Source: a plasmid
Sequence record: NZ_CP041047.1
Strand: one strand, 5' to 3'
Length of the DNA stretch: 64,000 bases
The notes beneath the pieces were generated by a model that was not told where the DNA came from, did not search any database, and worked only from the letters and a program-made list of their open reading frames with translations. Positions 28,120 through 54,520 of the stretch are shown one piece after another. How positions within the stretch are numbered: position 1 is the first letter of the stretch; each line of letters begins with the position of its first letter. Position numbers and translations under genes: made by a program.

Positions 28120-28388
28120 ATTCACCTCGTCAGTAGCAGTTGTCCTACTGTAACAGCGCGAGGTTTGAGAACATCATGGAAATGGGGTCAAAGCGGGGCG
28201 AAAAACAAGCCTGATTCACATGGCTTACGTAGCAGCATGGAGATCTCCTGAAGTCGGAGAAAATGAGTCAGATAACGCGAATATCGAAAATGGAACGAAG
28301 TACTTAATTACCTAACAGGAGGTACATGTTAACCTGACGAACATTGCTTACTGCCTATTTGTAGATTCAGGCTACAGGGAGAATCCAA

Positions 28389-28790
28389 GTGCCAAACTGC
28401 ATACCCCTTAATCCGGTATTACCTAAAAACTTCGACGATACACCTAATGAAAAGCGCTCAAAGTCTCAGCTTGATGCCTGGTGGGATCATCCATATGGCA
28501 TTACTTGCCCGGACGGGAAAATCACTGTTCGATGCCTGAATGGAGGAGCTTGGGATCGTTCGACAGTGCTGGGAGTAGCGGACAATTACGAAGAAGCCTG
28601 CGAGCTCGCAGAGCGCGAGCAATCAGCATGGGTCAAACGCCGTGCGGAGCCAATATTCTACTATAGCGGTGAAGCTCCATTCAGAGCGATAAGGGATGCA
28701 CAACGTCCTGATCAGGAGCAGACCTTTGTCGCGTCTTTTGACACGCAAGATGAGCTAATCAGCTGGCTTAATAGTCAGAAAACCAGTTAA
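28389..28790 (+). CDS. Hypothetical protein (133 aa)
   Basis: ORF at the head of the co-oriented low-GC gene block. Confidence 0.4.
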   Translation: MPNCIPLNPVLPKNFDDTPNEKRSKSQLDAWWDHPYGITCPDGKITVRCLNGGAWDRSTVLGVADNYEEACELAEREQSAWVKRRAEPIFYYSGEAPFRAIRDAQRPDQEQTFVASFDTQDELISWLNSQKTS

Positions 28791-28975
28791 TACCAAGTCT
28801 GGAAGTCTGCTTCTCAACAGACTTCCACATTTGATTATCAAGCTCCCCATAATTTGGGTTCAGTATAAACATTCCATTACGTTCTATTCCCCTCATTACA
28901 TTCATCTATCCGTAAATTTCGTTAGCCAGCACATCGGGGTGATACTGATGTCAGGTAAACAAAACGGATGCAAAA

Positions 28976-29266
28976 ATGCAGACATGTTCGGAAGTCCTGG
29001 CGGTTGAAATATTCAATCAAGTTGGACGTGAGGCAGCTATTGCTCAATATAACTTAATTTGTGAAATAGCCCAGCGACGTTACGAAGACAGCCTGGCCAA
29101 ATATGGTTCCGTGCCAGCTGGTTTCACCGCGCTCAATTTCCTCCATCCGGCAGAACTTCAGGAGCGTTACATCCTGGGGTTGGGAATTCAGCTTTGTATC
29201 GATGAGCAGCATGAAGCCAGGGAACGGGTTTTAGCTCGCTGCCTGGCAAGAAAAAGGGCCGCATAA
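28976..29266 (+). CDS. Hypothetical protein (96 aa)
   Basis: ORF only. Confidence 0.3.
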   Translation: MQTCSEVLAVEIFNQVGREAAIAQYNLICEIAQRRYEDSLAKYGSVPAGFTALNFLHPAELQERYILGLGIQLCIDEQHEARERVLARCLARKRAA

Positions 29267-29334
29267 ACAGGTGATAAAACAACTCAGCTATAGCTGAACA
29301 CGCACTAATTGGCTATGTTAACAAAACGAACAAG

Positions 29335-29580
29335 GTGGCGATTATGTACAGTGAATCTATCGATCGTGCTATCAGTATCCTCAAGGACGCGGGCGAAAAA
29401 ATCGGTATGGAACTGGGTAGTAATGTGACATCTCAGGAATCAGAACTGCTTGAGGATGCGCTGGTGGGCCTGACTAAAGTTAAAGGGCAACTCTGCGGTA
29501 ATCACTCCTTAACTGATGTAAAAGCGGACGTCGTGCCTTTTAGTCTCAGTTCGACGAAGAACGTCGATAGCCCGCATTAA
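29335..29580 (+). CDS. Hypothetical protein (81 aa)
   Basis: ORF only. Confidence 0.3.
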   Translation: MAIMYSESIDRAISILKDAGEKIGMELGSNVTSQESELLEDALVGLTKVKGQLCGNHSLTDVKADVVPFSLSSTKNVDSPH

Positions 29581-29609
29581 TTAACAACCACCAACTGGAC
29601 GGAAGGGAT

Positions 29610-30161
29610 ATGACTGAAGACAACGCCGGTAGTGTTTCTGGAAAAGCACAGAACGCCCCAAAAGCAAATGCCCACCTGGACAGGCTCTTTGATTTCATTG
29701 TGACAGAAATCAAAGAGCAGGGTGCAGCACCGTCTTACGAGCAGATCTGTTCTTCTCTGGGGTATTCAAAAGGGCTCGTTTCCCGGCGTATCCGGCAGTT
29801 GCATGACCAGGGACGAATCATTATCGATGGTGAAAGAAAGTCTATGACGCTGCGCGTAGCGAAAGGACAAGGTCATGATGACATTGCCGAACTCCCGGAC
29901 ATGACCAGTGACAGGAAAGCAATCATCACGTATGTCAAAAAATACATGAACAGAAATGGTGGCCGTGGGCCATCAGTTCACGCAATAGGGAAAGCGCTCG
30001 GCTTCTCGAATAACAAGGCGCGTAGACATGTGGACTATCTCGACGAAGTAGAGAGGGTACGTTACAGCCCTCATCTTAATGAAGTAATCGTTATCAATCA
30101 GGGTGATTACGTTAAAATTACCCAGGACAACGATGAACCACCGAGCCCGGCAGAAGGTTAG
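29610..30161 (+). CDS. Hypothetical DNA-binding protein with two LexA-N-terminal-like winged-HTH repeats
   Basis: Repeated motif EQICSSLGYSKGLVSRRIRQLHDQGRI / HAIGKALGFSNNKARRHVDYLDEV. Confidence 0.4.
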   Translation: MTEDNAGSVSGKAQNAPKANAHLDRLFDFIVTEIKEQGAAPSYEQICSSLGYSKGLVSRRIRQLHDQGRIIIDGERKSMTLRVAKGQGHDDIAELPDMTSDRKAIITYVKKYMNRNGGRGPSVHAIGKALGFSNNKARRHVDYLDEVERVRYSPHLNEVIVINQGDYVKITQDNDEPPSPAEG

Positions 30162-30892: not shown

Positions 30893-30918
30893 AAAATGGG
30901 GCCGTAGCCCCATTTATT

Positions 30919-31935
30919 TTAATGTTTGAATGAGGGTATAAAGGGTATTACTGGATTTGTTCCTAGCGAAGCTAATTCGTTAGGCGCAAGATAACGTCGC
31001 AGTTCAGTAATCAATATATCAACTGATTTATCCCAGCCATCTCTCACAATGTTTAGAATGTGCCGAGCTGGATAATGTGTTAGAAAAGGATGGTTGGGGC
31101 CAAATTTATTAAGGTGTTCAATAGTACCTATTGCATCGAGATAATCTGTAACAAGATGGTGTTCTGACTCAAAAATAGCGACAAATTTATAACCATCAGC
31201 AGCGTTTACCCACTGGCAAGTACAGTCATTAAGCTGAAATTGATTAGAACGTTTTTCCCCCTTGGGTTTAGGATTGACTCCAATACCAAAAGACAAATAC
31301 AAACCTTTCCTTCCCCAGAAGGCCGGTCTCTTCAAGTCCTGACCATTGTTTCCTTCGACCTCTCCAAGAATGCCAAACAAAGTAGCTGATTCTTGGTTAG
31401 GATTCGTTCTCATACGGAAAAGAATGCATAGATCTGCAAACTTTAAGCTATTATAAACTGAATTATAAAAGACATTCTCATGGCCAAGTAGATAAGGATT
31501 ATGCTCTACCGCAAAATTAGTGCCACTTCTAAAGTCACGGCAGCTAATGAATACACCAAACTGGCTCATATTAGCGAGGATATCGACATTGCGATAATCA
31601 GACAAATTAATAAGTATAGTATTTAAGACTTCTCTACCTTCATAACTCATCAGATAGTGGCAGAGCAAATTTTGTAGACCGAAGTTTCTGAACTGATCTT
31701 TAATTAAAGAAAAATATCCTTCACCAGCTAATGAAACTAGGTTTCTCATTGTTGGTGTATGTTTCCCCATGAGAGGGGAATTAAAACGTACCTTCATCCG
31801 GTTATTATCATAAAGGGTTTCAATAATTGAGCAAAAGTGCATCGCCCAATACGCGTTGTTATCACCAATTAAACCGGGTTTCACTACAGTAGTTTTAGAA
31901 AAATCCATTCTGTCTCCAAAGCAGTAATCAGTCAC
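30919..31935 (-). CDS. Hypothetical protein (338 aa), lone opposite-strand gene in a low-GC island
   Basis: Long ORF. No recognisable motif. Confidence 0.5.
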   Translation of the reverse strand: MTDYCFGDRMDFSKTTVVKPGLIGDNNAYWAMHFCSIIETLYDNNRMKVRFNSPLMGKHTPTMRNLVSLAGEGYFSLIKDQFRNFGLQNLLCHYLMSYEGREVLNTILINLSDYRNVDILANMSQFGVFISCRDFRSGTNFAVEHNPYLLGHENVFYNSVYNSLKFADLCILFRMRTNPNQESATLFGILGEVEGNNGQDLKRPAFWGRKGLYLSFGIGVNPKPKGEKRSNQFQLNDCTCQWVNAADGYKFVAIFESEHHLVTDYLDAIGTIEHLNKFGPNHPFLTHYPARHILNIVRDGWDKSVDILITELRRYLAPNELASLGTNPVIPFIPSFKH

Positions 31936-32030
31936 TCATAACACGATATTTGCAGTGAAAGTTATATCTGTAAGCAAATTTCGTCAGCTGTTAGCGTCGT
32001 ATTAGGCTTAGTAAAAAGCCGGAGGTAGAT

Positions 32031-32354
32031 ATGCCTAAAGACGATGTTGCAACAATCATAATCCAGAATGGGTTGACGCATAAAGTAAATGTGATCTGCA
32101 AATTCAGCGCACAAATCGACAATCAAATGTTCTCATTCATCATCCATCGCACATTAAGCGTATGTCGATATGCGCTTGTCTGTAAGGTAACAGGCCAAAG
32201 AATTGCAGTTCTTGATACCAGTCGAGTAAAGGCACTTGGTATGGAAGCAGCAGGTAAACTAGCGCTATCAGATCTGGCCTCATCATTAGGCGAGACTAGA
32301 CTTGCTGCGATTCTGACAAATTCACTTCAGAGCAGGAGCGCGGCAAGTGAGTGA
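32031..32354 (+). CDS. Hypothetical protein (107 aa), translationally coupled to the PAPS-reductase-like gene
   Basis: Its stop overlaps the downstream GTG start. Confidence 0.4.
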   Translation: MPKDDVATIIIQNGLTHKVNVICKFSAQIDNQMFSFIIHRTLSVCRYALVCKVTGQRIAVLDTSRVKALGMEAAGKLALSDLASSLGETRLAAILTNSLQSRSAASE

Positions 32355-33417
32355 TTTAATCGACGATAACTTTATTATTCCTGCACTGAGTAGCATAGCA
32401 GGCATCACCACGCCACTATCAGGACAAACGTACAGGAACGCTCCAGATATCGACATATCTTGCTATGACGTGATAATCATTTGCCTTAGCGGCGGAAAAG
32501 ACTCCATAGCCTGCCTTCTCCACTTAATTGACATCGGGGTCGATCTGTCCAGGGTGGAACTCTGGCATCACGATGTTGATGGCCGCGAGGGAAGTACTTT
32601 AATGGACTGGCCATTTATGGCCGACTACAACCGCAAAATAGCTTCAACATTTCAGATACCGTTGATGTTCTCCTGGCTTCAGGGAGGAATGGAAGGTGAG
32701 ATGCTGAAAGAGAATGGCTACAGTCGCCCGCAATGTATCGAAACCCCAGATGGATTAATAATCGCGGAACGTGATATCCAGCGAAGCACTCCCGCCACGC
32801 GACTTCGGTTCCCTCAGCAATCACCAAGCCTTAAAACACGTTGGTGCTCATCAGCACTAAAAATTGATGTTGGTCGGCGAGCACTCACAAATCAGAGACG
32901 CTTTGACGGAAAAAAGGTGCTTTTTATTACGGGGGAAAGGAGAGCGGAAAGCTCTAATAGATTCAATTACTTACAACTGGAGCCACATACCAGCAGTTGC
33001 AAAAAAAGACAAGTTGATGCCTGGAGGCCAGTACTTGAATGGTCTGAAGAACAAGTCTGGGAGATTTTAGCAAAACATCGTGTTACAGCCCCAGTACCGT
33101 ATCGTCTTGGATGGGGTCGCAGTTCATGCTTAACGTGTATATACAACAGTGCTCGCATATGGGCAACCATCAAACATTATTTCCCCGAGCGTATTCACGC
33201 AATGGCCAACTATGAAAACCGCTTTGGGGTCACTATCAGTCGTAAACGAATAAATGTTCTGGATCTAAGCCAGAATATTTCTCCTATTAATATCACGGAT
33301 GAGGAAGCGCTGCTGCAAGCGGTAAATCCGGTCTATACATTGCCCGTCATTAACATGTCAAAAGAATGGGTGCTACCTGGTGGGGCGTACAACCGGGAGA
33401 AATGCGGGTCAGACTAA
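32347..33417 (+). CDS. Phosphoadenosine-phosphosulfate-reductase-family PP-loop protein
   Basis: PP-loop motif SGGKDS at residues 48-53. GTG start with an AGGAG RBS. Confidence 0.6.
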   Translation: MSDLIDDNFIIPALSSIAGITTPLSGQTYRNAPDIDISCYDVIIICLSGGKDSIACLLHLIDIGVDLSRVELWHHDVDGREGSTLMDWPFMADYNRKIASTFQIPLMFSWLQGGMEGEMLKENGYSRPQCIETPDGLIIAERDIQRSTPATRLRFPQQSPSLKTRWCSSALKIDVGRRALTNQRRFDGKKVLFITGERRAESSNRFNYLQLEPHTSSCKKRQVDAWRPVLEWSEEQVWEILAKHRVTAPVPYRLGWGRSSCLTCIYNSARIWATIKHYFPERIHAMANYENRFGVTISRKRINVLDLSQNISPINITDEEALLQAVNPVYTLPVINMSKEWVLPGGAYNREKCGSD

Positions 33418-33526
33418 TTAGCCATCAGCGATTTATAGCTGAGATTTCGTCACCTGAATATTACGTGGAAAATAGATATCAAATAGCAACATTGATACAG
33501 GCTTAACCGCCTCTGAAGGAAATATT

Positions 33527-33844
33527 ATGACGATGGTAACGGCCAGAAATTGTACTGAAACACGGTTCAACCAGTTATGGGATGCTCTGCATGAAAAAAG
33601 CAGTGCGGAAAACGAATCCTTGTTTCAGCAAGAATTGCATCGCTGCCGCAGTAAACGTCAGCGAAGTAAACTGGCCGGGCGATTCGCCGGTGCCTGGCAA
33701 ACCTTATTCGATGCCTTCTGTGAAGGTCGGGTCTTCTGCTCACTTCTGGACTCGGTTATCCACCAGGAGAGTATCAGCGAATGGCAGGTTGAAGAGTTAA
33801 TCTCATTCACTTCTGCCCAGATGTCGACTCTATACAAAGGGTAG
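33527..33844 (+). CDS. Hypothetical protein (105 aa)
   Basis: ORF only. Confidence 0.3.
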   Translation: MTMVTARNCTETRFNQLWDALHEKSSAENESLFQQELHRCRSKRQRSKLAGRFAGAWQTLFDAFCEGRVFCSLLDSVIHQESISEWQVEELISFTSAQMSTLYKG

Positions 33845-33852
33845 AGGTAGAT

Positions 33853-34188
33853 ATGGGACAAAGAAAATGTGCAGCAGCGTTCCTGCTCGCTGAAGAAATG
33901 TACCAGATACCAGCGACCAAATCGGTGATACTTGCCCGGGACCTGGAAGAAAGAGGGTTGTATCTCCGCGCTGCCAGGCAATGGGGAGAGGTCATGTTTG
34001 AACATACCCAGTGTACTGAGTACATTGTTGAACAACGGGAACGTTGCATTCGGTTATCCAATTCTCGCCATGAAGACCGTATCAGACAGCATGAGCAGGC
34101 AAGTGATCTTCAATATATTCACAAGCATATTAATGATGTATACACACGGATGGGACTAAAAGACGATGGTGTCTTTAATACCGCCTGA
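33853..34188 (+). CDS. PerC-family transcriptional regulator-like protein
   Basis: LEERGLYLRAARQWGEVM...RERCIRL fits the PerC signature. Confidence 0.45.
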   Translation: MGQRKCAAAFLLAEEMYQIPATKSVILARDLEERGLYLRAARQWGEVMFEHTQCTEYIVEQRERCIRLSNSRHEDRIRQHEQASDLQYIHKHINDVYTRMGLKDDGVFNTA

Positions 34189-35525: not shown

Positions 35526-35724
35526 CCACCAGCTGTTGAATCGTCACAATAGCCGACATAGTCGGCTATTTTTTTACGCTAAGAAAAACCATTTATGCCC
35601 ACAAATTGCGGTTGAAAAAGCTATTTATTTTTGGGTGCAAAACGTCCTCATTCTCACTGTAACAATAAATTTCAACATGTGATTATAGTGAGAGTCGAAG
35701 CTGAAACATGAATGGTGGCTACAT

Positions 35725-38605: not shown

Positions 38606-38927
38606 TACATTTCGTCTCTTTTCAGGTAAACAAAATGGAAACACAATGTATTTTCATTGCAGGTTTCAAAAATTGTTTCACTCTGGGCCATACATGTTTA
38701 GTATGGGGACATAACAAAGAGAACGCTGGCGAGTACGCTGGCATAAAGATCACCTTTCCCGGCCTGGCCGGGATTTTTTTTGTCTGATGTGCCGTCCTTC
38801 TCACCACAAACTTAATATCCTGACTATTTTTATGGATGTGCAGTGCAATTATTTAACGAATTACCATTCGTCACCAGACCGGACAGGCTGATAATAATGT
38901 CATCCGATACAGAGCTGGGGAGGGTGT

Positions 38928-39894: not shown

Positions 39895-40171
39895 TAACCG
39901 TAGCATATTATGATTGATGAATGCCTGAATGGTAATCTGCTCGCGGATTACCATTATTTTTTGAGATGTCTTATAGAACTTATCTAAAATTACATACGAC
40001 TGTCATGACAGTATAAGGTCTTTATGAAAAACGTCGTCAAAACTTTACTACCCTCAGTGAACACTGGTGATCAAGACGAAAGCGTAAAATCGGATACGCT
40101 GACTGGCACTACTAAACCCTGCGACCACGGACTGGTTCATAATCATCTTTTAGGGCAGGAGGCCTGTTACT

Positions 40172-43142: not shown

Positions 43143-43229
43143 ACTTCATTTTTTCATAATTTGCTATTCGTCACTTGATTGACCGGGGGTACGATTAATT
43201 TAACACGGATAATTATGGGAGACAGTAAA

Positions 43230-44498
43230 ATGACAGACGCATCTACAATAGACGCAGTTCAACCAAAGGCAAGACGCTTATCATTTAAAGAGCTTCCAGG
43301 GTTTGATATTTCTGCTGAAGCACTTCTCAAAATTATCGAAATGCCGTGTATGGTTATTCGCCGGTCTCCTGCAATGAAAGTACTGGAGATGATCACGCTG
43401 CGGTTACGTGGGGATTGTCTTTCTGCCCTTGGCATTGACTTAAACTCTGCCCAAATTACCAGTAAAGGGACGGTATCGGGGGGCAATGGTGATATGGACG
43501 TATCAGTACCTGCAACACAACTCTTTTCTTTAATCCGCAACATGCGCGGCGAAGATGAAATTAACGTCCGCTTCCATGCGGCAAAAAACCATCTTGTCAT
43601 TCGCACCGACAAAAACTCCTATAACATCCCGGTTTGCTTAGACCATATACCCGAAATTCAGGCTGAGACGCTGGAACATAATTACAGCGTTTACTTTCCA
43701 ACGCAGATGCTGAGTCAGATTATCAAGCGTGTCAGCCACGCTGCGGCTCAGAACGATGTCCGCTTTTATATGAATGGGGTCTACCTCGGTATCGATAATG
43801 GCCAATTTATTGCTGTAGCCACTGATGGACATCGTATGGCCGTCAGTTCTCATGATATCGACTTCAGCGATGACGTGGGCGATGAGATTCAATCTCCGAC
43901 AGCTCCTACCTCTATCAGTAACACGAATGCAGGTGTGATTTTACCCAACGGGGTTTTCCCCGTGCTCCATAAAATCCTGAGCGGTAGCCAGGGTCAATTC
44001 AAAATTGACTACAGCAACCGTAACCTGACATTTACGCTCGGAAGCCATACAGTCATTTCAAATCTTGTCGATGGCCGTTACCCGGACTGGAAGCGCGTGG
44101 CCAGCACGGTAGCCAAAAATACTGAACTGTTTAAGGTTGATCCTTCTGAACTCACCACCGCACTAAAACGCGCAACCCCATTGCTTAAAGAGGGCTCGCC
44201 AAACAACACCAGTGTTTGTGTGATGTCATTCAAAGACAACGCCCTACAGCTTAAGTCGCCCGGCTCAAATGCAATCAGTTGCAAAGAGGTGATGGACATT
44301 GCGAAAGAGGCAGGCGAGCCCGAAACAATTGTTGATATCGGTATGAATGCCGATTACCTCCTGGAATCACTGGCAAGCCTGGGGGCGTGTTCGGAAGAAG
44401 GAGAAGCCGCACAGATTGCTTTGCGTGATACAACGACCGGCATATTGATTTCAGTAAACAAAAACAATTACGACATCATCATGCCTGTCCGTGTCTGA
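43230..44498 (+). CDS. DNA polymerase III beta-subunit (sliding clamp, DnaN)-like protein
   Basis: Three-domain length (about 420 aa). FYMNGVYLGIDNGQFIAVATDGHRMAV, GRYPDWKRV, IGMNADYLLESL and the C-terminal ...IIMPVRV align with conserved DnaN blocks. Confidence 0.6.
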   Translation: MTDASTIDAVQPKARRLSFKELPGFDISAEALLKIIEMPCMVIRRSPAMKVLEMITLRLRGDCLSALGIDLNSAQITSKGTVSGGNGDMDVSVPATQLFSLIRNMRGEDEINVRFHAAKNHLVIRTDKNSYNIPVCLDHIPEIQAETLEHNYSVYFPTQMLSQIIKRVSHAAAQNDVRFYMNGVYLGIDNGQFIAVATDGHRMAVSSHDIDFSDDVGDEIQSPTAPTSISNTNAGVILPNGVFPVLHKILSGSQGQFKIDYSNRNLTFTLGSHTVISNLVDGRYPDWKRVASTVAKNTELFKVDPSELTTALKRATPLLKEGSPNNTSVCVMSFKDNALQLKSPGSNAISCKEVMDIAKEAGEPETIVDIGMNADYLLESLASLGACSEEGEAAQIALRDTTTGILISVNKNNYDIIMPVRV

Positions 44499-44648
44499 CA
44501 AAACGCTCTCGTTTTGTCGGCCTTTTCGAAATAGCCAATTTCATGGGCGTGATAACGTTAAAACAAGCTTCCTGACGGGATGGCTATATGCCATCTCGCT
44601 CCCATTGGTCGCGATCACTGCGTCCTAATATTCTGGAGCCAGAATGAA

Positions 44649-45470
44649 ATGAAAAGCGTTCTGAAGTGGGTAGGAGCCAAACACAACATTATGGCAAGTC
44701 TTAAGCATGTACTACCGAAAGGTGGTCGGCTTATTGAGCCCTTTGGCGGTTCAGGCGCTGTAATGATGAATACGAATTACCCAGAATACATTTTGGCCGA
44801 TATTAATAGCGACCTGATCGATACATACCAGAGTATTTTTAAGTCGCCTGAAAAGGTACTTTCTGAGCTTAAACGCCTTTACTGTCTCGGGCGTTCTGAG
44901 GACGCCTATTATGAGCTGCGAAGCCAGTTCAATAATCATGATAGTGCAAGTGACACTCAAGCTGCTCTGTTTATCTATCTGAATAGGTTTGGCCATCGCG
45001 GACTATGCCGATACAACCGGAAAGGCATCTTTAACGTCCCCTGGGGTTATTACGCCAACCCCTATCTCCCAGAGACAGAGTTATACGCAATGGCTGAGAA
45101 AATGTCCTCAGCAACTTTACTTTGCGCCAGCTTCCAGACCACGCTATCAATGGCCCGCCCGGGTGATGTGGTGTATTGCGACCCACCATATGTTAATCCC
45201 GGCAGATTCACGGCTTACCATGCCAGCGGTTTTACACCCGCTATGCAGATTGAGCTTACCAAACTGCTCCAGTTGCTGCCTGAACGCGGGGTTCATGTCA
45301 TCGCATCATGCCACGATGCGCCTGATATTCGTGAGCTTTATCAAGCCTTCGCTATTCATGGTGTGACTGCCCGGAGAAGCATATTTAAAGGCAGCGGGGA
45401 TGGGAAAAAAGCTTCAGAAATCTTCGCGGTCAAATTAGCGGATAACTCGAAAAAGGGAGCTGCGGCATGA
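44649..45470 (+). CDS. Dam-family N6-adenine DNA methyltransferase (orphan; no cognate endonuclease seen)
   Basis: LKWVGAK, FGGSGAV (motif I) and DPPY (motif IV) in alpha-class order. Confidence 0.75.
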   Translation: MKSVLKWVGAKHNIMASLKHVLPKGGRLIEPFGGSGAVMMNTNYPEYILADINSDLIDTYQSIFKSPEKVLSELKRLYCLGRSEDAYYELRSQFNNHDSASDTQAALFIYLNRFGHRGLCRYNRKGIFNVPWGYYANPYLPETELYAMAEKMSSATLLCASFQTTLSMARPGDVVYCDPPYVNPGRFTAYHASGFTPAMQIELTKLLQLLPERGVHVIASCHDAPDIRELYQAFAIHGVTARRSIFKGSGDGKKASEIFAVKLADNSKKGAAA

Positions 45471-45697
45471 AACGCTTCCATTGTTCTGAAAAGCTGCATA
45501 ACCCAGAGACTGAGAAATTTTGTCAGGATATCGCCGAACAATATCGGACAGCACCTGATATTGCCGTGGCGCAGTTTAAACAAGTGCTGAGCTCTAAGCC
45601 TCTAACTTACTGGGAGTGTGTCGTGATCCGCGAGCGTGTCTCTGACCTTATTAAAATTAATCAAGCAACAGCTGAGGGCCACGATGAGCCAATTTAA
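45467..45697 (+). CDS. Hypothetical protein (76 aa)
   Basis: Overlaps the Dam stop. Confidence 0.3.
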   Translation: MKRFHCSEKLHNPETEKFCQDIAEQYRTAPDIAVAQFKQVLSSKPLTYWECVVIRERVSDLIKINQATAEGHDEPI

Positions 45698-46667
45698 ACC
45701 CAAAAGCCTTGTAGTCTACCGCATCCAAAAAGCTCTGGAATTAGACAAGCTGGATGAACAGTTAAGTGAGTTGAAATACACTCCCTGCGGGCCTAATGAT
45801 ATGGCACGGTCAGGATGGATCCCGCCATTGGGTGAAGATGTCGAGCTGTTAAAGCATGAGTCGAATAATCTCATTCTTCTGACTGTTAAGCACGAATCGA
45901 AAATACTTCCTCCCGCGACCATCAAAGAAATTGTGCGAACCCGGGTTCAGAAACTGGAGAAAGAGCAAAACCGCAGGCTAAAGAAAATGGAGATCCAGGC
46001 CGTCAACGATGCCGTGCTCGCTGAGCTCATACCAAAGGCTTTCAGCAAATACAGCACTACAAACATTTGGGTGGATACTAAATCACGTCTACTGCTTGTT
46101 GAGACCACCAGCCATAAAAAAGCAGATGATGTAACAGCTTTGCTACGTAAAACTATTGGCTCACTTCCAATTATCCCATTCACGCTGGAAACGCCGGTAG
46201 AACTGACGTTAACAGAGTGGGTCAAAACAGGAAGTCTGCCGCCTGGCCTAGCTTTATGCGACGAAGCCACGCTCAAAGATGTGCTCGAAAACGGGGGGGT
46301 CGTTACAACAAAACGCCAGGATTTGATATGTGATGAGATCGCTCATCACATCGAGGCCGGAAAGCTTGTGACAAAGGTTGCACTGGGCTGGATGAACCAG
46401 ATGTTTTTCATCCTGAATGACAATTTCATCTTTTCACGACTGACCTTTACGGAAGAACTTATTGAACAGAACGATGACATTTCGCCAGAAGATCACGCCC
46501 AAAGATTTGATGCCGATTTCGTTTTGTTTACCTCTGTTGTTATGGAGGTTCTGGACACAATGATAAAAGCCCTCGGGGGTGAAAGCCCAGGACTCATCAC
46601 AACGCCGTCAGACGAACAACAAGGTGTCGCGGCAGAAGCCAAACAACCAGAAAAAACCTTCCATTAA
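45684..46667 (+). CDS. rdgC: Recombination-associated protein RdgC homolog
   Basis: Collinear with E. coli RdgC: ...YTPCGPNDMARSGWIPP..., KKMEIQAVNDAVLAELIPKAFSKYSTTNIWVD, LTLTEWVKTGSLP, RFDADFVLFT. Confidence 0.75.
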   Translation: MSQFKPKSLVVYRIQKALELDKLDEQLSELKYTPCGPNDMARSGWIPPLGEDVELLKHESNNLILLTVKHESKILPPATIKEIVRTRVQKLEKEQNRRLKKMEIQAVNDAVLAELIPKAFSKYSTTNIWVDTKSRLLLVETTSHKKADDVTALLRKTIGSLPIIPFTLETPVELTLTEWVKTGSLPPGLALCDEATLKDVLENGGVVTTKRQDLICDEIAHHIEAGKLVTKVALGWMNQMFFILNDNFIFSRLTFTEELIEQNDDISPEDHAQRFDADFVLFTSVVMEVLDTMIKALGGESPGLITTPSDEQQGVAAEAKQPEKTFH

Positions 46668-46678
46668 AGGGCTGAGAG

Positions 46679-47557
46679 ATGATTACAGCTACAGAACTCC
46701 AAGAGTTATCACGCCAGGTTGAAAATGCTAACATTGCCCGAGCCCTGGCAGTTAAAGAGTTGGTTAAAGAGACAAGAGATCGTCAGTTTTCATTGTGGGC
46801 GCTATTTATTGGTCTCTTCAGAGAGACACCGGCGCGAAAAAAGCTGAACGAATGTGAATTGCATCTTAACCTGCTGCTGCCAAAATGCAGGAGCATCTTT
46901 CTTCAATACGTAGTTATGTCCTCGTTGGAAGAAATTTCGAAATCACCAGATTGTGAGATTTATCAGCATCTAGTCAACTGCTGGAAAGAAGCTCAGATAA
47001 AATATAACGAGTCAGGCAGACGACTCAAACTTGCAGAAAATGCCCGTGAACTATTAAAAACAGCAAAGGATGAATGTAATAGTGCTTCCACAACTGAATT
47101 TCTGGATATGGTTACTACCAGTAAAGCAATATCCATACTTTCAGCAATAGACACATCCTCTGCGAGTAGTTCGTTAAAGAGAGCTATGGGTGCGCTTAAG
47201 CGATTAGCAGATGAAATGCCTGCCCGGCAATCACCTATTGATTCAAATTTACCAGATGACACGCTTGATCTGTTTGTCGATCTGACTATAAATCCTGTTA
47301 TCGATATTCTCTCCTGGTTAAATATTGAAAAGCTGGATAATGCCGAAGTGCAGTGCAGCAAAGCCTTAAAGAAACTTCAGACGTTATTAGGACAACTGGG
47401 TGCTGAGCATGATTTGAGAACTAAGGATTATCAATCTCAATTAGATACGCTTAAGAGAATTGAACAACCATACATCAAAAAGGTGATGCGGCATATACCC
47501 GAAAATATGAAGTTCAAGGAGCCTGAGTATCTCCAGACTATAGGAATGAACCCATGA
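46679..47557 (+). CDS. Hypothetical alpha-helical protein (292 aa), first gene of a 3-gene operon
   Basis: Its stop overlaps the next gene's start. Confidence 0.4.
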   Translation: MITATELQELSRQVENANIARALAVKELVKETRDRQFSLWALFIGLFRETPARKKLNECELHLNLLLPKCRSIFLQYVVMSSLEEISKSPDCEIYQHLVNCWKEAQIKYNESGRRLKLAENARELLKTAKDECNSASTTEFLDMVTTSKAISILSAIDTSSASSSLKRAMGALKRLADEMPARQSPIDSNLPDDTLDLFVDLTINPVIDILSWLNIEKLDNAEVQCSKALKKLQTLLGQLGAEHDLRTKDYQSQLDTLKRIEQPYIKKVMRHIPENMKFKEPEYLQTIGMNP

Positions 47558-48156
47558 CTCTAAAATATATAATCGCTCTCGCAATATTTCTGACATTTGT
47601 GTGCTTTGCAGCTTTCATACTTATCTACGCGAGTCGAACAAAACGAGAACAACAACAAACTCAGCAACCTTTGGACGAGCATGATCAGCAGGCAGATATT
47701 AATGCCGATGCCGACGAGAACGCCGCACTTGATGGGTTGAGCGAGTACTTCATCAAAAAAAATTCGATATTGCCAAAAGTCCTGATGGATCTTTATGTGC
47801 GCTTGAGTGCGGTGTTCAATGGTCAGTACATTATCGCACCCCAGGTGCTTGCCCGGGACTTAGTAGAGCTGGAGCTCGAAGATGAACCGGTTGCCCCGGT
47901 TGACGTACTTCAGGCGCAACAGTACGCAGATGAATTCGTGTTCGATTTTGTTCTCTCCGATGCGCATACCGGGGAACTAGTGCTAGCAATGATCAATGAA
48001 GATGCTATCAGCGCTCAGCCTGAAGGAGAGTTCATTATTGCCCTTTTTAAAAGAACTCACATTCCTGTCTTTCGCTATGAAACGTTGTCAGGCTTGGACG
48101 ATAACGCCCTGGCAGTCAACATCGCTGAATCAATAGACGATGGCCGATTCTCTTAG
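47554..48156 (+). CDS. Membrane-anchored DUF2726 (NERD-like) domain protein
   Basis: N-terminal TM helix, acidic linker, then FDFVLSD..LVLAMINED..HIPVFRYE matching the DUF2726 pattern. Confidence 0.5.
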   Translation: MTLKYIIALAIFLTFVCFAAFILIYASRTKREQQQTQQPLDEHDQQADINADADENAALDGLSEYFIKKNSILPKVLMDLYVRLSAVFNGQYIIAPQVLARDLVELELEDEPVAPVDVLQAQQYADEFVFDFVLSDAHTGELVLAMINEDAISAQPEGEFIIALFKRTHIPVFRYETLSGLDDNALAVNIAESIDDGRFS

Positions 48157-48174
48157 TTCCACAAGGAATTTATT

Positions 48175-48603
48175 ATGTCTCTGTCAAAAAAACAAAGAAT
48201 AGTACTGAGGGCTAAATTTGGTGGTCGATGTGCATATTGTGGCGAGGTACTGAAAGAAAAAGGTTGGCACGCTGATCACGTAGAACCTGTGCTAAGGAAA
48301 TCCGTACAGGATATGCAAGCTGCGGCCAGAGGGAAATTTAAGCTTAAGGCTACCGGTGAAGTGTTTAATGAAAGTGCCAACTGCTTAGAAAATCTTTTCC
48401 CAGCCTGTGCGCCCTGCAATCTGCTCAAAACAACATATTCACTGGAAATGTTCCGCAAACAAATAAGTTTACAGGTTGAAAGGGCACGGAAGAGTAGTAT
48501 GAATTTCAGAACGGCAGAAAGATTCGGCCAGATAAGCATTGTAGAGAAACCCATTGTTTTCTGGTTTGAACAGTATTCAGAGAAAAATGGTGCTATCAAA
48601 TAA
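48175..48603 (+). CDS. HNH endonuclease
   Basis: CAYCG...HADHVEP...CAPCN zinc/HNH motif. Confidence 0.65.
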   Translation: MSLSKKQRIVLRAKFGGRCAYCGEVLKEKGWHADHVEPVLRKSVQDMQAAARGKFKLKATGEVFNESANCLENLFPACAPCNLLKTTYSLEMFRKQISLQVERARKSSMNFRTAERFGQISIVEKPIVFWFEQYSEKNGAIK

Positions 48604-49664: not shown

Positions 49665-50249
49665 ATGTCACGACAAGAAGCCGCAACGCAGTTATTTATG
49701 TCTGCACCACCAGCAAGTATTGATGTCGTTATTGAGCAGCTGGAAAGGGACGCTCAAGCAGCCGGTATCGATATCCATACAATCTCTGTAATGGCCAGCC
49801 TGTTACGTGATCGAATAGAAGCATACAGTGACGTGCTTAAAATCGAGCCTGAGCGGGTGATACACGCACTTGAGGTACTGCGAGGTACGGAAGTGCCGTG
49901 GGCTTTTTACACTCCGTCCAGGCTACCTGAGCTTGAAGATGTTCATTGCTGGGAAACTCCTCACGATTTTGACCAAGACCTAGGTGAACACCAGCTGCGG
50001 CGCTATATTTGCCCTAAATGCGAGCATGAATCAACCGACCCAATGCGCTGCACGGCTGGCCATGCTCCTGGAGTTAACCAGTATCCTGAAAGCTGTGATG
50101 CCACTATCTGGAATTCGCCCGATTCTTGGGATAGTATTAACCCTATAATAAAATTAATTATCAAATCTACGTTCCTGGCTGACCTGACTGTTCATACAAT
50201 CTTCTATCCAAAAGGGTTGAAGCTTCCTGAAATTCAGGACGTTGAGTAG
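49665..50249 (+). CDS. Hypothetical protein (194 aa) with Cys/His cluster
   Basis: CPKCEHESTDPMRCTAGH. Confidence 0.3.
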   Translation: MSRQEAATQLFMSAPPASIDVVIEQLERDAQAAGIDIHTISVMASLLRDRIEAYSDVLKIEPERVIHALEVLRGTEVPWAFYTPSRLPELEDVHCWETPHDFDQDLGEHQLRRYICPKCEHESTDPMRCTAGHAPGVNQYPESCDATIWNSPDSWDSINPIIKLIIKSTFLADLTVHTIFYPKGLKLPEIQDVE

Positions 50250-50440
50250 TCTGCTTCGGGCTCTGTGATCTGATAGTTATATATACCTCATTTAAGACCC
50301 CTTACTGGGGTCTCTTTTTTTGGACTTCCGCCGTGCTATGTACTTCACGGTATCCCCAAATATCCCGGCTTATGTAGTTCGTCGATTTGCTTCGTCACCT
50401 GCCATACCTGTCTCATAATTTCTCTATTTGGAGAAATCTG

Positions 50441-52150
50441 ATGAACCTACCGACAGCTGTATTAGCGAATAACGATGAAAATGAATCAGACGTCCTCAGC
50501 CTTTATGCTAATCCCGTAGACAGTCAAAGTGGCCTCATTGAACATGACGGCTTTCAAAAACTAAATGCCATGCGCGATCTGCTGGTGGAATACAACACAA
50601 CACTGAAGCACATGCAGGCCATGTATGATGCAGTGATGCGGAACCGGCATGATGAAGCATGGCGCATGTTCTGTGATTCTTGTGACAATTCCATCAAATA
50701 TACGCTGGCTGTAGAAAATTTGTTCTGTATAGAACGGGCCCGCTGTGCTCTCGATGAAAAGTACTGGCAAAAGCTGCTCGATCTGACCGGCGTAAAACCA
50801 TTTATGCCCACCGAAAGATACGATGACTGGAACGAAGGATTAAGGGCATGGCGAAAATCATCAGAATCAAATTTTGAGAAGCTTAAGCCTGTACCCTTCA
50901 ACGAAGAAAGTATCTTTTCTACCGCATTCGCATTGAATGAAGAGAAAAAAGACTACTTCGCCCAGATGGTTCATGGTGTGTTTGAAAAGCTCTCCGCTCT
51001 GCATAAGACTAACCGTGCCCAGGGCTTCAGCAACAAACTCATCATAGCCAGCTGCTTACCAAGTAGAGATAACCGCAGATCCTATGACTATCTCAACTAT
51101 TTTAATGACCTTCGTAAGGTTATTGGACTGATGTATGGACGAAGCGGTGCTGAGGATGTGAATTCGGCTGCGGTCAAAGAGTACATGATGAGTAACCCTG
51201 GCGAATGGGTAAGTATTGATAACGATAGTCTTAAAGTGAAGGGGTTTATTAACGGCAATGTGCATATCCTGATTGAGGAGGAAACTTGTGACAATCTCAA
51301 TCTGGTACTATCCCATTTAATGCCAGGCTGCATTCCTCTCGATCGCCGATACACCACCGGCCATAACTCCGCAAGAACTGTAAAAACCAATGAATATCGG
51401 TCGCAGTTGATATCATTCTCTGCTGTTAACTCCTTAATATCATATGCCACTGACCATTTGAACGCGGGCAAACACCTGTCACCGGGGCCGCACACTTTTA
51501 TCCTGCGGGACAACCAGTCTGTTAGTGAGAAAAAAGAACTGGTGAACATATGGGAGTCATTGGGTGCTGTCAGAAGATATAGAGAAGTATATGACTTTGA
51601 CTTTAGCCCCGTTGAAGCATTCAAACTTCTGGCATTACATGGTTCTATACCTGACCGCTATACGCACCAGTTCTATGCAACGGTCGGAGAACTCCAGAAA
51701 CGAGCAATTGATGAATGTATGGTGGCTTCAGGTATGCGTTTGCTGGAACCGAATATCGGTCTTGGTGCGCTACTGAAAGGGTTACCAGAGGGGGTGGATG
51801 TTACTGGTTTTGATATACACCCCGCAGCTGTTGCAATTACTGGCCTGCGCTGGAACGTCACCCTTAATGATTTTCTATTGGTCAAGCCTGAAAATACCGG
51901 CTTGTTTGAAAGAATTCTGATGAATCCTCCATTTAGTGACTCACGCTGGATTGCACATTTTCAACATGCGATGAGATTCCTGAAACCGGGAGGACGCTTG
52001 ATAGCAATACTGCCAGGGAGCGCAAAGGAGCATCTTTTAACCCGAGAAGCTGGGCCCGGTTACGACATCAATATTCTGGGTTGCTATGACAACGCCTTTG
52101 AAGGAACCGCAGAATCCATAAAACTTTTCTCCGTTGATGCCCATGAATAG
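50441..52150 (+). CDS. Large two-domain methyltransferase (uncharacterised N-terminal domain + C-terminal class-I SAM-dependent N6-adenine MTase module)
   Basis: C-terminal LEPNIGLGALL (motif I) and NPPF (motif IV). RBS GGAGA. Confidence 0.6.
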   Translation: MNLPTAVLANNDENESDVLSLYANPVDSQSGLIEHDGFQKLNAMRDLLVEYNTTLKHMQAMYDAVMRNRHDEAWRMFCDSCDNSIKYTLAVENLFCIERARCALDEKYWQKLLDLTGVKPFMPTERYDDWNEGLRAWRKSSESNFEKLKPVPFNEESIFSTAFALNEEKKDYFAQMVHGVFEKLSALHKTNRAQGFSNKLIIASCLPSRDNRRSYDYLNYFNDLRKVIGLMYGRSGAEDVNSAAVKEYMMSNPGEWVSIDNDSLKVKGFINGNVHILIEEETCDNLNLVLSHLMPGCIPLDRRYTTGHNSARTVKTNEYRSQLISFSAVNSLISYATDHLNAGKHLSPGPHTFILRDNQSVSEKKELVNIWESLGAVRRYREVYDFDFSPVEAFKLLALHGSIPDRYTHQFYATVGELQKRAIDECMVASGMRLLEPNIGLGALLKGLPEGVDVTGFDIHPAAVAITGLRWNVTLNDFLLVKPENTGLFERILMNPPFSDSRWIAHFQHAMRFLKPGGRLIAILPGSAKEHLLTREAGPGYDINILGCYDNAFEGTAESIKLFSVDAHE

Positions 52151-52303
52151 TGGGGAAAGGAAGAGCTGGTCGAGTTAATTTCGTCACCCGTAACTGAACA
52201 GAAAAAATGAGATAGAGAAAAAGCCGTCAGTTTGTCGATGTTAAATGCTATTCAAATTTTTCAACATGCGACAATTGAGCCAACTACATGAAGAGGAAAC
52301 ACA

Positions 52304-53059
52304 ATGTCAGCATTTCTCATCAATAAATTATCTTTCGAAGATACCAAACAAATAATGTTGTCCTCCATGAAAACAATGGCATCTCTTCATGGTATTTTGG
52401 CAATATTCTTGCCGATAATTGCTGGTGGTGGACTCCTGACACTCATCATGAAAAATGTGACAATGGAGGGGCTTGCATTTTTTATCTTACAGCCAGTTGT
52501 ACTCACCCTCTACCTTACGGCTATCTTATGCCGATATCAAAGCTCAGAGCTAAGATTGAATATCTGGGAAGAACTACGCAACTTTATCGTTGTGTTAGTT
52601 TATGCATTATTCCTGACCGTACTAATGATCGTAATATTGTGGTTAGTCAAATTTATGATTGCTTCAGCGGTTGCGGGTGAAACCAACCATGTTGAATATA
52701 AACAACCAACATTAACAAGCATTAGTCTGGCTTACTCCAACCTAATAGTGTATTTCAATATGTACGCCCTTGCCACTTTGAGCGTATTTATCGCTACGCC
52801 AATGCTCGTTTTATTCATACCAACAGTTACGCGGTGTAAAGGTTCTCTGCTGAAAAGTATACCAGTCATTTGTAAAAGTACTTTTATGAATATTGGGCCG
52901 TTGTTCGCATTTTCAGCTATCTCTGGTGTTGTTTTACTTTCGTGGTCATACTTTTCGCTCAGGTATGAATGGTTAATCCCGGCAGCAACTATACCTCTGG
53001 CCTACTTATCAATATTGAATTACCAGCTGTCTGAAGCAGCATTGCCTCGTAACCAATAA
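52304..53059 (+). CDS. Hypothetical polytopic membrane protein (251 aa)
   Basis: About 6 TM helices. Low GC. Confidence 0.4.
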   Translation: MSAFLINKLSFEDTKQIMLSSMKTMASLHGILAIFLPIIAGGGLLTLIMKNVTMEGLAFFILQPVVLTLYLTAILCRYQSSELRLNIWEELRNFIVVLVYALFLTVLMIVILWLVKFMIASAVAGETNHVEYKQPTLTSISLAYSNLIVYFNMYALATLSVFIATPMLVLFIPTVTRCKGSLLKSIPVICKSTFMNIGPLFAFSAISGVVLLSWSYFSLRYEWLIPAATIPLAYLSILNYQLSEAALPRNQ

Positions 53060-53070
53060 AAAGGAAACCT

Positions 53071-53496
53071 GTGATGAGAAAAATAATATTAAATGCGGTT
53101 GTTTGTTTATTTGCAATTAATGCATCAAGTTTCGCAATATCAGCGGAAAGCTCTCCATCTCGTGACGAACTGAATGACGTGATGAAAGTTCATGCTTCCG
53201 AGATTGCTGCTGTTATCGCATGTAAAGACTACCTCGAAAATGGCGAGGAACGTTTGACTGAAGCGAAATCAAAAGCTGGCCGTGTACTGGGTAAGATGGT
53301 AGGCAATCAAGCCAAGGGTAGCGAGTATGCTAGTCGGATTCTGGTAACTGTTAACGAAGCTAAGCCAGATGAGCAACTGAAGGCTGAATTCGACAAGGTC
53401 AACCTTGACCACTCAGTCCGCGTTGCAAAATGCGCTCAGCTAGTAGCTGGTAATGCCGCACGTGCGGACGATGCTGATATCAATTATCTGAATTAA
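53071..53496 (+). CDS. Hypothetical secreted protein (141 aa)
   Basis: Signal peptide. Confidence 0.4.
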   Translation: MMRKIILNAVVCLFAINASSFAISAESSPSRDELNDVMKVHASEIAAVIACKDYLENGEERLTEAKSKAGRVLGKMVGNQAKGSEYASRILVTVNEAKPDEQLKAEFDKVNLDHSVRVAKCAQLVAGNAARADDADINYLN

Positions 53497-53506
53497 GAGG
53501 CTAGCA

Positions 53507-54112
53507 ATGGCGAAGATCAGGATCACTCATCGTTATGACATCAATAAAGACATGTTCTATGGCGTAGAAACTAACCAGCCATATGAAAAGGTTGTTCAGA
53601 GGTTAGCTTATCTCCAATTGATTCATTCCACGTTGCCTGATTTTCCCTACATGGCTAATTGCCTGGAACAGGCCGATGCAGTAGAACTCTATTGTCGAAT
53701 CTTTGGTGGTATTCCTTTAAACACAAATCAACATTATACCGCAGAGATTGATTTATATAGGAACTGGGAAATAGATACACGCGAACTCGTTAATGACATT
53801 AATTGCCAAAATTCAATTGCCATTTCCGGCTGCGTAGAAAAAATATTTAAATACATTGTTGAAAACTCTGTTCAGATCTATCAGCTCACAAAAGAAGCTT
53901 ATAAATTAGGGCAGGGCATGACTAATAATGAAAAAGAAGAAATGGCTCTTTTACTGATTTATATGGATTGGCAACTTCAAAGGATGGATCGTGTTTTAAT
54001 GGGTGAGAATATTCAAAAAGAGTGGGATTGGCGGGATTTTGAGGGAAGGTTAATTTCAGATATTTCGTATTCACCGACCGAGCAACCTGACCTATACATC
54101 CACAAAGATTAA
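53507..54112 (+). CDS. Hypothetical protein (201 aa)
   Basis: ORF. AAGAGG RBS. Confidence 0.35.
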   Translation: MAKIRITHRYDINKDMFYGVETNQPYEKVVQRLAYLQLIHSTLPDFPYMANCLEQADAVELYCRIFGGIPLNTNQHYTAEIDLYRNWEIDTRELVNDINCQNSIAISGCVEKIFKYIVENSVQIYQLTKEAYKLGQGMTNNEKEEMALLLIYMDWQLQRMDRVLMGENIQKEWDWRDFEGRLISDISYSPTEQPDLYIHKD

Positions 54113-54520
54113 TGTTATTGACGCACAAGTAGAAAATATTAAGACCTGGCACAAATAGGAGGCAAACACATTAGAAAAAATTAACCATGTATTTATGATG
54201 GGTTCTGTTAAGCCTAAAATCGGGGTAGTAATAGATCTGTTATTGAAAATGCCAGACATGCTGATAGAGTTGAACGAATGATAAACGTTTCACCTTCTCT
54301 GCTCTGGCGGATGCCAGTTTATGGATGTGCATACTGGAACTATTTGAAATATTTGGGTAGAGGGATCTACTTAATATGTAATGTGATTAAAAACATTCTG
54401 TTTTCTATGTGGTCAAAAAGTTCAGTATGAGTGATATATGATTGATGATTACAAAAGCTTCCTCAAAAACCCCGGAAATTTACCGGAACTAATTAGTTAC
54501 TCTCCGTCAGGCAGACCTAG

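Follow-up and report, generated by a model that had tools for sequence, protein, structure and literature searches.

A conserved multi-operon array of small co-oriented genes far from the predicted transfer origin of IncA/C-like MOBH1 plasmids

The 64,000-nucleotide stretch of the plasmid record NZ_CP041047.1 analysed here (the window) carries, between positions 28389 and 54112, a block of small genes which a preliminary description had likened to the leading region of conjugative plasmids, i.e., to the early-transferred establishment region in which anti-restriction, anti-SOS and anti-defence genes cluster. The block comprises 43 open reading frames (ORFs), 40 of them annotated in RefSeq relatives and three short ones that are unannotated; two of these three are conserved in one distant relative. 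All but two ORFs (41/43) share the plus strand (p = 2e-10, two-sided binomial test), and the exceptions are just the genes at 30919..31935 and 41212..41574, so that both the count of more than 40 small genes and the two opposite-strand genes stand as originally described. The coding density is 90%, the median protein length is 142 aa, and the junctions are short as had been stated, the majority being below 100 bp and 11 being overlaps. The block had further been called AT-rich. This is correct with respect to the upstream 28 kb (G+C content 44.4% in the block versus 49.4% at window positions 1-28388), but it is not unique to the block, and because the sequence downstream of it has a G+C content of 44.3%, the AT-richness exists only relative to the upstream cargo. 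Pfam searches performed with all 43 ORFs recognised 11 of them, and every gene that had been named before (SSB, Dam, second methyltransferase, PAPS-reductase-like protein, RdgC, DnaN, HNH nuclease and PerC) was recovered by family searches. The genes with recognised families or folds are the following:

29610..30161, plus strand: LexA-type winged-helix protein without peptidase domain (g04; Pfam LexA_DNA_bind E 1.6e-9, HTH_36)
32347..33417, plus strand: PP-loop/PAPS-reductase-like protein of phage type (g09; Pfam E 2.7e-6, phrog_424 E 5.7e-33)
33853..34188, plus strand: PerC-family transcriptional activator (g11; Pfam PerC E 2.5e-10)
38928..39485, plus strand: SSB paralogue with OB fold (g20; Pfam SSB E 2.4e-12)
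41212..41574, minus strand: small winged-helix protein (g25; weak SarA/Rot match)
43179..44498, plus strand: DNA polymerase III beta-clamp (DnaN) paralogue (g30; three DnaN Pfam domains)
44580..45470, plus strand: orphan Dam, a D12 class N6-adenine methyltransferase (g31; Pfam positions 1-253 of 253, E 2.3e-54; DPPY at residue 201)
45636..46667, plus strand: RdgC, a DNA-binding RecA antagonist (g33; Pfam RdgC E 5.8e-93, full length)
47554..48603, plus strand: membrane-anchored, very acidic DUF2726 protein with a nuclease-related fold (g35), together with a phage-type HNH endonuclease (g36)
50387..52150, plus strand: second orphan amino-methyltransferase with N-terminal DUF4942 and C-terminal class-I methyltransferase domain (g40; Pfam DUF4942 E 2e-20)

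The recognisable products are an SSB, a beta-clamp paralogue, RdgC, an orphan Dam, a second amino-methyltransferase, an HNH nuclease and a DUF2726 nuclease-like protein, beside about 30 lineage-restricted small proteins, several of which are envelope-targeted. The best PADLOC model for Dam is an orphan methyltransferase (E 3e-86), and no nuclease partner is adjacent to its gene, the neighbours being dnaN, a 76-aa ORF and rdgC. Although the block encodes Dam, GATC sites are mildly under-represented in it (2.76 per kb versus 3.79 expected from composition), and no depletion is seen in the rest of the window (3.87 versus 3.89 expected). The DUF4942 protein matches the DNA methyltransferase family phrog_6263 over its full length (E 2.5e-96) and contains the motifs LLEPNIGLG and NPPF, the HNH endonuclease (48175-48603) matches phrog_2118 (E 4e-53), and the PP-loop protein has weak, distant PADLOC matches to BrxP, SspD and DndC. 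The SSB paralogue ends in a non-canonical C-terminal tip, TEIAF. Three small regulators are encoded, namely the LexA-type winged-helix protein, which is probably a local regulator, the PerC-family activator and the inverted winged-helix protein. As to the secreted proteins and lipoproteins that had been proposed, three proteins (at 30488, 41693 and 53071) possess signal-peptide-like N-termini and about five contain transmembrane segments, but a simple lipobox pattern identified no lipoprotein. That most of the genes are uncharacterised was correctly noted, with 32 of the 43 ORFs lacking a family assignment. The anti-defence families whose search had been suggested were not found: among the 43 ORFs Pfam detected no ArdA, ArdB/KlcA, ArdC, PsiA/B, Ocr or Acr family, and only the orphan methyltransferases and the SSB overlap with that category. 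The establishment-like content is thereby confirmed for the SSB, the two orphan methyltransferases and the RecA antagonist RdgC, but not for the Ard and Psi families.

The block is not one operon but several, consisting of about eight terminator-bounded transcription units, the longest of which (41693-50249) includes dnaN, dam, rdgC and the genes for the DUF2726 protein and the HNH endonuclease. The terminators and the candidate regulatory site are:

28800..28827, plus strand: intrinsic-terminator-like hairpin, end of the first unit
30894..30915: bidirectional terminator hairpin where the genes g06 and g07 converge
35548..35570, plus strand: terminator-like hairpin
38757..38773, plus strand: strong terminator hairpin (6 GC pairs and T8) in the 322-bp gap before ssb
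39928..39955, plus strand: terminator-like hairpin after the ssb unit
50295..50313, plus strand: terminator-like hairpin closing the long 41693-50249 unit, before the methyltransferase gene
41570..41586: perfect 7-3-7 palindrome ATCATATGGGATATGAT that overlaps the start codon of g25, read from the sequence

The ssb gene forms a short operon of its own together with a gene for a transmembrane protein (39541-39894), bounded by the terminators at 38757 and 39928. The palindrome ATCATATGGGATATGAT is a candidate operator of the inverted winged-helix gene, whose product is probably an autoregulated repressor of the downstream dnaN-dam-rdgC unit. An imperfect inverted repeat resembling AGAAAAGCACC-N9-GGTGCTTTTCT was observed upstream of the trx-traL, dsbC-traC, traN and 292-kb operons of the related plasmid record NZ_CP154588.1, with these positions:

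29665-29708, 22485-22528 and 42536-42579 (stretch L007 of NZ_CP154588.1) and 44869-44912 (stretch L006 of NZ_CP154588.1): copies of the inverted repeat
38788-38801 (window): half-site upstream of the block ssb

The half-site has a 12-mer in common with the traN copy and lacks the left arm. A possible activator box TTTGCNGTSSTTYT, derived from the four tra-operon upstream regions, has its single one-mismatch copy in front of ssb but was dropped, its counts being close to chance (1 copy with one mismatch versus 0.79 expected, and 20 with two mismatches versus 11.2). The inverted-repeat element may be an activator box or an inter-operon terminator or attenuator, the statistics being weak.

Single-strand promoters of the Frpo or ssi type, which had been suggested as a check on a leading-region function, were not detected. 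The 12 gaps of the block (all of at least 84 bp) were folded on both strands with DNA parameters, with gaps of the F plasmid serving as control. The most stable block gap reached -0.126 kcal/mol/nt with z no lower than -3.9, and the stablest gaps are those that hold ordinary terminators, whereas the F controls, the gaps that precede ssb and the antirestriction gene, reached -0.23 to -0.27 kcal/mol/nt with z = -5 to -8. Comparison of the F Frpo regions with the window by blastn gave chance matches only, the longest inverted repeat in the block measures 20 nt, and Rfam found nothing within the block.

The block is plasmid-borne and not prophage or chromosomal, in agreement with the preliminary description: it is carried by 109 plasmids in PLSDB (103 at >=99% identity) with sizes of 180-450 kb, mostly from Citrobacter and some from Klebsiella, Enterobacter and others, and a search of 50,697 phage records returned zero nucleotide matches. 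The window is collinear with the C. freundii plasmid pNFYY361-1 (NZ_CP154588.1, record ~22.9-86.9 kb, minus strand), which also revealed a relaxase, for which a search beyond the window had been suggested. This plasmid encodes mobI(A/C) at 236301-236732, divergent from a ParM/StbA-like gene (237918) across a 1.2-kb gap, and the MOBH relaxase, TraD, TraJ, type IV secretion system, activators and ssb-recT-exo are annotated within record 237-296 kb. In particular, it contains an SLT gene, an FlhC-type activator, traN/G/H/F, AcaB and traU/W/C/V/B/K/E/L (F-type type IV secretion system), a MoxR-DUF3150-VWA plus ssb-recT-exo cluster at 254-263 kb inside the tra region, and DUF4400 (TraJ), TraD and the MobH relaxase at 280.7-285.4 kb. 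Further DNA-metabolism genes are present elsewhere, with umuDC and tus just upstream of the block and dnaB, dinG, parB-like genes, a second PAPS-reductase gene and RecT/Exo farther off; essentially no paralogues of block genes were found elsewhere on the plasmid. MOB-suite assigns the type MOBH, and its mobility calls differ among plasmids between conjugative and mobilizable. MobI is 31% identical to the IncC-type MobI by tblastn, and the divergent mobI/stbA locus has the same layout in the IncC plasmid pVCR94dX, where a long array of small genes in one orientation comes after it. Judged from these markers (mobI, MOBH, F-type type IV secretion system, AcaB/FlhCD-type control), the host replicon is an IncA/C-like MOBH1 conjugative-type megaplasmid. 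The literature name for such untyped relatives is IncA/C-like (ACL; PMC11493245), and self-transmissibility was demonstrated for the Providencia relative pPROV252-NDM (PMC12184191). Over the 300 bp that precede mobI there was no convincing alignment with the origin of transfer (oriT) of the IncC plasmid pVCR94dX, which is expected at such divergence and indicates that the plasmid is a distant relative, neither IncC nor IncA.

The position of the block with respect to oriT is decisive for the comparison with a leading region. In SXT/R391 and IncA/C, oriT sits just upstream of mobI (PMC4542580, PMC3915882), and the oriT of the plasmids described here is predicted to lie in the gap between mobI and the divergent stbA-like gene, its place being set by mobI/stbA synteny and its polarity by homology with IncC/MGIVchHai6. 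In nine plasmids the block starts 110 (pCAV1857-208), 123, 134, 136, 140, 146, 174, 178 (pNFYY361-1) and 316 kb downstream of mobI, i.e., at 53-71% of the plasmid length and more than 100 annotated genes from the predicted oriT, and in the opposite direction round the plasmid the block is still at least ~73 kb away from it. A distant oriT, which the preliminary description had itself named as speaking against its proposal, is hence what synteny predicts in all nine. In every case the block is co-oriented with mobI and its genes point away from the predicted oriT. For a MobI-type oriT with IncC relaxase, marker mobilisation puts transfer downstream of mobI, and genes on the other side enter last (PMC7449626). 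Since the genes are read in the same direction as the DNA enters, with the polarity taken from homology, the transferred strand (T-strand) would be the coding strand of the block, and it could therefore not template early transcription of the block genes. Leading-region enrichment is limited to roughly the first 30 ORFs, gene orientation there is functionally important, and anti-CRISPR function falls sharply if the gene is moved out of the leading region of the T-strand (Samuel et al. 2024, PMC11541004). In the F plasmid the methylase, antirestriction, ssb, parB-like, psiB and hok genes are without exception oriented toward oriT; by the published polarity, the strand logic of the MobI/MOBH1 superfamily would be opposite to that of F, whose T-strand templates leading and tra genes.

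The strand bias is moreover a property of the whole plasmid. Counted in annotated segments of NZ_CP154588.1, 46 of 51 genes in the mobI-proximal 29 kb, 36 of 38 at 160-191 kb and 48 of 53 in the tra region lie on the same strand, compared with 41 of 43 in the block, and ~90-95% of the backbone genes, tra included, are on one strand. The co-oriented run itself exceeds the block, extending from umuD (~22.6 kb) to a GntR gene (56.35 kb) with a further minus-strand gene at 27349-28125, and the boundaries of the block are arbitrary. The proposed match to an early-transferred region does not survive these findings, i.e., a predicted oriT 110-316 kb off, a T-strand that by homology equals the coding strand, the lack of Frpo-like folds in the block gaps and a plasmid-wide bias. 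The stretch that would be transferred first, which is proximal to oriT (NZ_CP154588.1 207.6-236.7 kb), contains a Lar-family restriction-alleviation gene, dinG, ccdAB, a RES-Xre pair and ~40 small hypothetical genes, and it is in this stretch that an entry-linked anti-defence set of this plasmid would be expected.

Deeper lineages were reached via the DnaN paralogue. Twenty-seven of the 43 ORFs are collinear in the Providencia plasmid pCHS4.1-3 and 27 of 43 in the K. oxytoca plasmid pKOX-ea2b, with 23-65% amino-acid identity, and the order of the core is the same in both: PerC, ssb, inverted winged-helix gene, dnaN, dam, rdgC, DUF2726 and DUF4942. IncpCHS4.1-3 plasmids (Providencia/Proteus/Moellerella) and pKOX-ea2b share the markers of the clade, with MobI 60% and 38% identical, respectively, and a MOBH relaxase. 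The clamp paralogue is 51% identical in Providencia and 36.5% in K. oxytoca, RdgC is 65% and the LexA-type protein 56% identical in Providencia, and the PerC gene is kept in both relatives. The small winged-helix gene g25 is inverted in all three lineages and its product shows 28-38% identity to the Providencia, K. oxytoca and pVCR94dX homologues. The lineages differ by insertions, which in Providencia comprise an NTP pyrophosphohydrolase, an AbaSI-like endonuclease, an SPFH protein and a RelE/ParE pair and in K. oxytoca DinG, while g07, g09, g10 and the HNH endonuclease are specific to the Citrobacter group. The pKOX-ea2b module, too, has tus in front of it and lies more than 50 kb from any mobI. 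The shared gene order marks the block as an old, probably vertically inherited backbone module of a distinct clade of IncA/C-like megaplasmids in Enterobacterales. The published account of the Providencia relatives deals with the resistance cargo only and leaves the module without assigned function (PMC12184191).

Within this conserved frame one slot is variable, and a few of the unassigned proteins have characteristic features:

30919..31935, minus strand: g07, 338 aa, member of an uncharacterised family that is rare (79 representatives in 1.84 billion)
30919..33844: lineage-specific insert g07-g10 inside the module, without tblastn matches in the Providencia stretch (L010)
49665..50249, plus strand: acidic (net charge -16) helical protein with a CPxC...C...C zinc ribbon, restricted to these plasmid lineages (g39)

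The residues N84, D134, D168, E192, E194 and G195 are invariant in the g07 family, and this D/D/E-x-E-G constellation makes g07 probably an enzyme. Searches of Pfam, NCBIfam, PHROG, PADLOC and PDB gave no match for g07, nor did a 40-sequence profile match Pfam or PDB. Homologues exist in Thiolinea, Nitrosomonas, Allochromatium, Thiomargarita and a Bacteroidales metagenome-assembled genome; in six other genomes they had no conserved g08-g10 neighbourhood and were unlinked to other block genes. The slot is inverted and conserved in position but variable in sequence: the Providencia slot gene (L010 1965-2981) also encodes 338 aa, but homology to g07 was ruled out (BLASTP E 0.24, hhalign probability 0.1%), and in the K. 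oxytoca module g07, g09 and g10 are absent and g08 has a 34% match. The proteins g23, g39 and g35 are strikingly acidic, with net charges of -16 to -20; g23 and g39 form tiny families (3 and 16 clusters, respectively, in 5.8 billion proteins), and the zinc ribbon of g39 is invariant. The idea that g23 and g39 are DNA mimics gained no support: there was no PDB sequence match, the AlphaFold2 models had a mean predicted local distance difference test score (pLDDT) of 53 and 57.9, and Foldseek against PDB gave E > 3.

The flanks of the block contain several further elements. Window 26252-26601 holds an Rfam C4 antisense RNA (RF01695, 62.9 bits, E 5e-10) directly upstream of an HTH_35 winged-helix gene (Pfam E 7e-33). 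By these matches the two make up a P1/P7-type immunity cassette in C4/antirepressor style, situated in the backbone of a conjugative plasmid. Beside tus (~24.5-25.4 kb), window 25456-26052 contains a solo Cas6e/CasE-like fragment (PF08798 E 8.8e-5, below the cut-off; a 381-nt Cas6e gene in RefSeq). In pKOX-ea2b this place beside tus is taken by a type IV-like CRISPR-Cas cluster with Csf2, a helicase and a Cas6e-like protein, and the fragment is therefore probably a decayed remnant; a CRISPR repeat array was not found at 24-28.4 kb. At the downstream block edge ISKpn26 (window 54668-55648) is inserted, abutting a GntR/FCD regulator gene (55647-56354) which may belong to the conserved array, since the Providencia module is followed by a GntR gene as well. 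Farther downstream, window ~58500-63750 (record 23191-28410; G+C content 0.38) carries on one strand two adjacent tyrosine-type site-specific integrase genes and then a 2.36-kb hypothetical gene, and looks like an insert of the recombinase-trio type next to parM/parR.

We favour the view, to which we give a probability of roughly 0.6, that the block is a conserved, multi-operon backbone module for DNA transactions and establishment that is expressed from double-stranded plasmid DNA, i.e., after complementary-strand synthesis in the new host as well as in vegetative life. The methyltransferases would modify the plasmid DNA, thereby shielding it from restriction and controlling processes that depend on Dam, SSB and RdgC would curb RecA loading on single-stranded plasmid DNA and gaps, and the clamp paralogue may help to recruit host polymerases, together with the UmuDC that the plasmid itself encodes just upstream, to a replicon that is very large and of low copy number. 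It agrees with this view that the plasmid also specifies UmuDC, Tus, DnaB, DinG and RecT/Exo outside the block. The module would be governed by its own small regulators, i.e., the LexA-type winged-helix protein, PerC and the inverted winged-helix protein with its palindromic candidate operator. Several observations weigh against this interpretation. With 32 of the 43 ORFs unassigned, the label of a toolkit rests on a minority of the genes; the SSB has no canonical acidic C-terminal tip, and its partner interactions may therefore differ; and orphan methyltransferases, RdgC and very acidic small proteins would also be expected of a counter-defence island. Moreover, oriT was placed by synteny, the mobI-proximal gap shares no nucleotide similarity with the IncC oriT, and a second oriT nearer to the block may exist.

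The most serious competitor, which we consider possible but unlikely, is a distal establishment or counter-defence island that fires in a burst of zygotic induction once double-stranded DNA is formed in a cell without the repressors of the block, the methyltransferases acting against restriction, RdgC and SSB as PsiB-like anti-RecA factors, and the acidic g23, g39 and g35 as DNA mimics or inhibitors. The two orphan methyltransferases, SSB and RdgC, the net charge of the acidic proteins, the narrow and fast-evolving families and the variable inverted g07 slot fit such an island, three small regulators with an inverted winged-helix gene and its palindrome are compatible with a repressor-controlled overshoot, and the proven anti-defence operon of IncC is also far from oriT (PMC7498323, PMC11602122). 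However, the known anti-defence families are missing from the 43 ORFs by Pfam, the models of g23 and g39 (pLDDT 53 and 58, no fold match) are too poor to argue for mimicry, the sharp drop of anti-CRISPR function outside the T-strand leading region (Samuel et al., PMC11541004) speaks against a distal location, and a stable collinear core of 27 of 43 ORFs over three deep lineages resembles housekeeping more than arms-race turnover. A specific version of this proposal is more doubtful still: IncA/C-like MOBH1 plasmids might rely on the block as a distal, repressor-controlled establishment module firing at the double-stranded stage, in which RdgC, SSB and a private beta-clamp replace PsiB-type SOS suppression, two orphan methyltransferases replace Ard-type anti-restriction, and some lineage-restricted small proteins (g23, g39, g35 and the g07 slot) are new anti-defence effectors. 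Expression from single-stranded DNA of the Frpo type would be impossible in such a scheme, because virtually every gene is on the transferred strand. New anti-defence functions, for which the block had been recommended as a place to look, gained no support from the searches made here, and an anti-defence role of the block beyond self-methylation is possible.

The other explanations are much weaker. The block could be a defence island with anti-phage or anti-plasmid instead of anti-defence systems, as the HNH and DUF2726 nuclease-like proteins, the distant likeness of the PP-loop protein to BrxP/SspD/DndC, the D/E constellation of g07 and the type IV CRISPR-Cas cluster beside the module in pKOX-ea2b might suggest, but PADLOC, applied to the ten largest or most suspicious proteins, detected neither a complete nor a partial known system and only methyltransferase and weak single-domain matches, and the g07 homologues elsewhere are unlinked to other block genes, which makes this reading improbable. 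Even less can be said for a classical leading region that enters the recipient as the first DNA and is transcribed from single-stranded DNA via Frpo/ssi promoters. Unidirectional small genes, SSB, orphan methyltransferases and AT-richness had favoured it, but SSB alone is common with the F leading region, and the distance from mobI in nine plasmids, the orientation opposite to the F leading genes, the block gaps without Frpo-like folding or similarity, the absence of Ard/Psi families and the plasmid-wide strand bias render it highly unlikely. The least probable of all is a phage-derived segment, i.e., the remnant of a prophage or a phage-plasmid module that the plasmid has taken up: the PAPS-reductase-like protein, the HNH endonuclease and the DUF4942 methyltransferase have PHROG matches and a P1/P7-type C4 antisense RNA and HTH_35 cassette lies just upstream, but none of the 50,697 phage records matches at the nucleotide level, Pfam and PHROG found none of the block genes to be a phage structural, lysis or integrase gene, att-like direct repeats are lacking at its flanks, and the module is collinear in three plasmid lineages.

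The conclusion that the block is no classical leading region has consequences for how such plasmids are read. Plasmids of 180-450 kb from Citrobacter, Klebsiella and Enterobacter in hospitals and wastewater carry carbapenemase and heavy-metal resistance cargo on this backbone, and about three quarters of the 26-kb core module are functionally blank. Pipelines that call a leading region from unidirectional small genes together with an SSB and a methylase would misassign the block, and early expression is not to be assumed. The plasmids and their annotation are public, and long co-oriented arrays of unknown genes are known as a kind in IncA/C-like plasmids; new are the correction of the leading-region inference and the definition of a conserved core of 27 genes. 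Leads for future work are the strand logic opposite to that of F, which is a testable difference in the establishment of large resistance plasmids, RdgC, the clamp and SSB as possible PsiB-like functions, g07, and the PAPS-reductase-like gene near oriT in IncC.

Among known systems, the block has its overall plan in common with the 'unk' modules of IncC/IncA plasmids (pVCR94dX; PMC4542580), in which mobI is likewise followed by co-oriented small unknown genes among par, methylase and PAPS-reductase-like genes. IncC possesses homologues of two block genes, g09 (61.6% identical) and g25 (38%), but lacks the dnaN, rdgC and DUF4942 genes, and the module as such is absent there. The 61.6% identity of g09 is far above the backbone divergence, as given by ~31% for MobI. 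The IncC homologue of g09 (pVCR94dX stretch L008, 3406-4521) is encoded on the opposite strand at a distance of 3-4.5 kb from mobI/oriT and points toward oriT; as it is among the few IncC genes that the incoming strand could template, it is a candidate true early gene. The proven anti-restriction/anti-CRISPR operon vcrx089-093 of IncC includes an SSB and is not oriT-proximal (PMC7498323, PMC11602122); its counterpart here (MoxR-type ATPase, DUF3150, VWA, ssb, recT, exo) is the cluster at record 254-263 kb in the tra region, outside the block, and no block gene is homologous to it. With the leading regions of F and ColIb-P9 and the islands described by Samuel et al. (PMC11541004) the block has in common many small co-oriented genes, an SSB, orphan methyltransferases and mostly uncharacterised ORFs, the SSB being the only homologous product shared with the F leading region. 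It differs from the leading regions of F and ColIb-P9 in lacking Frpo/ssi elements and ArdA, KlcA, PsiB and PsiA, in its predicted orientation opposite with respect to the T-strand, and in its location more than 100 kb and more than 100 ORFs from the predicted oriT, whereas those regions occupy the first ~30 ORFs.

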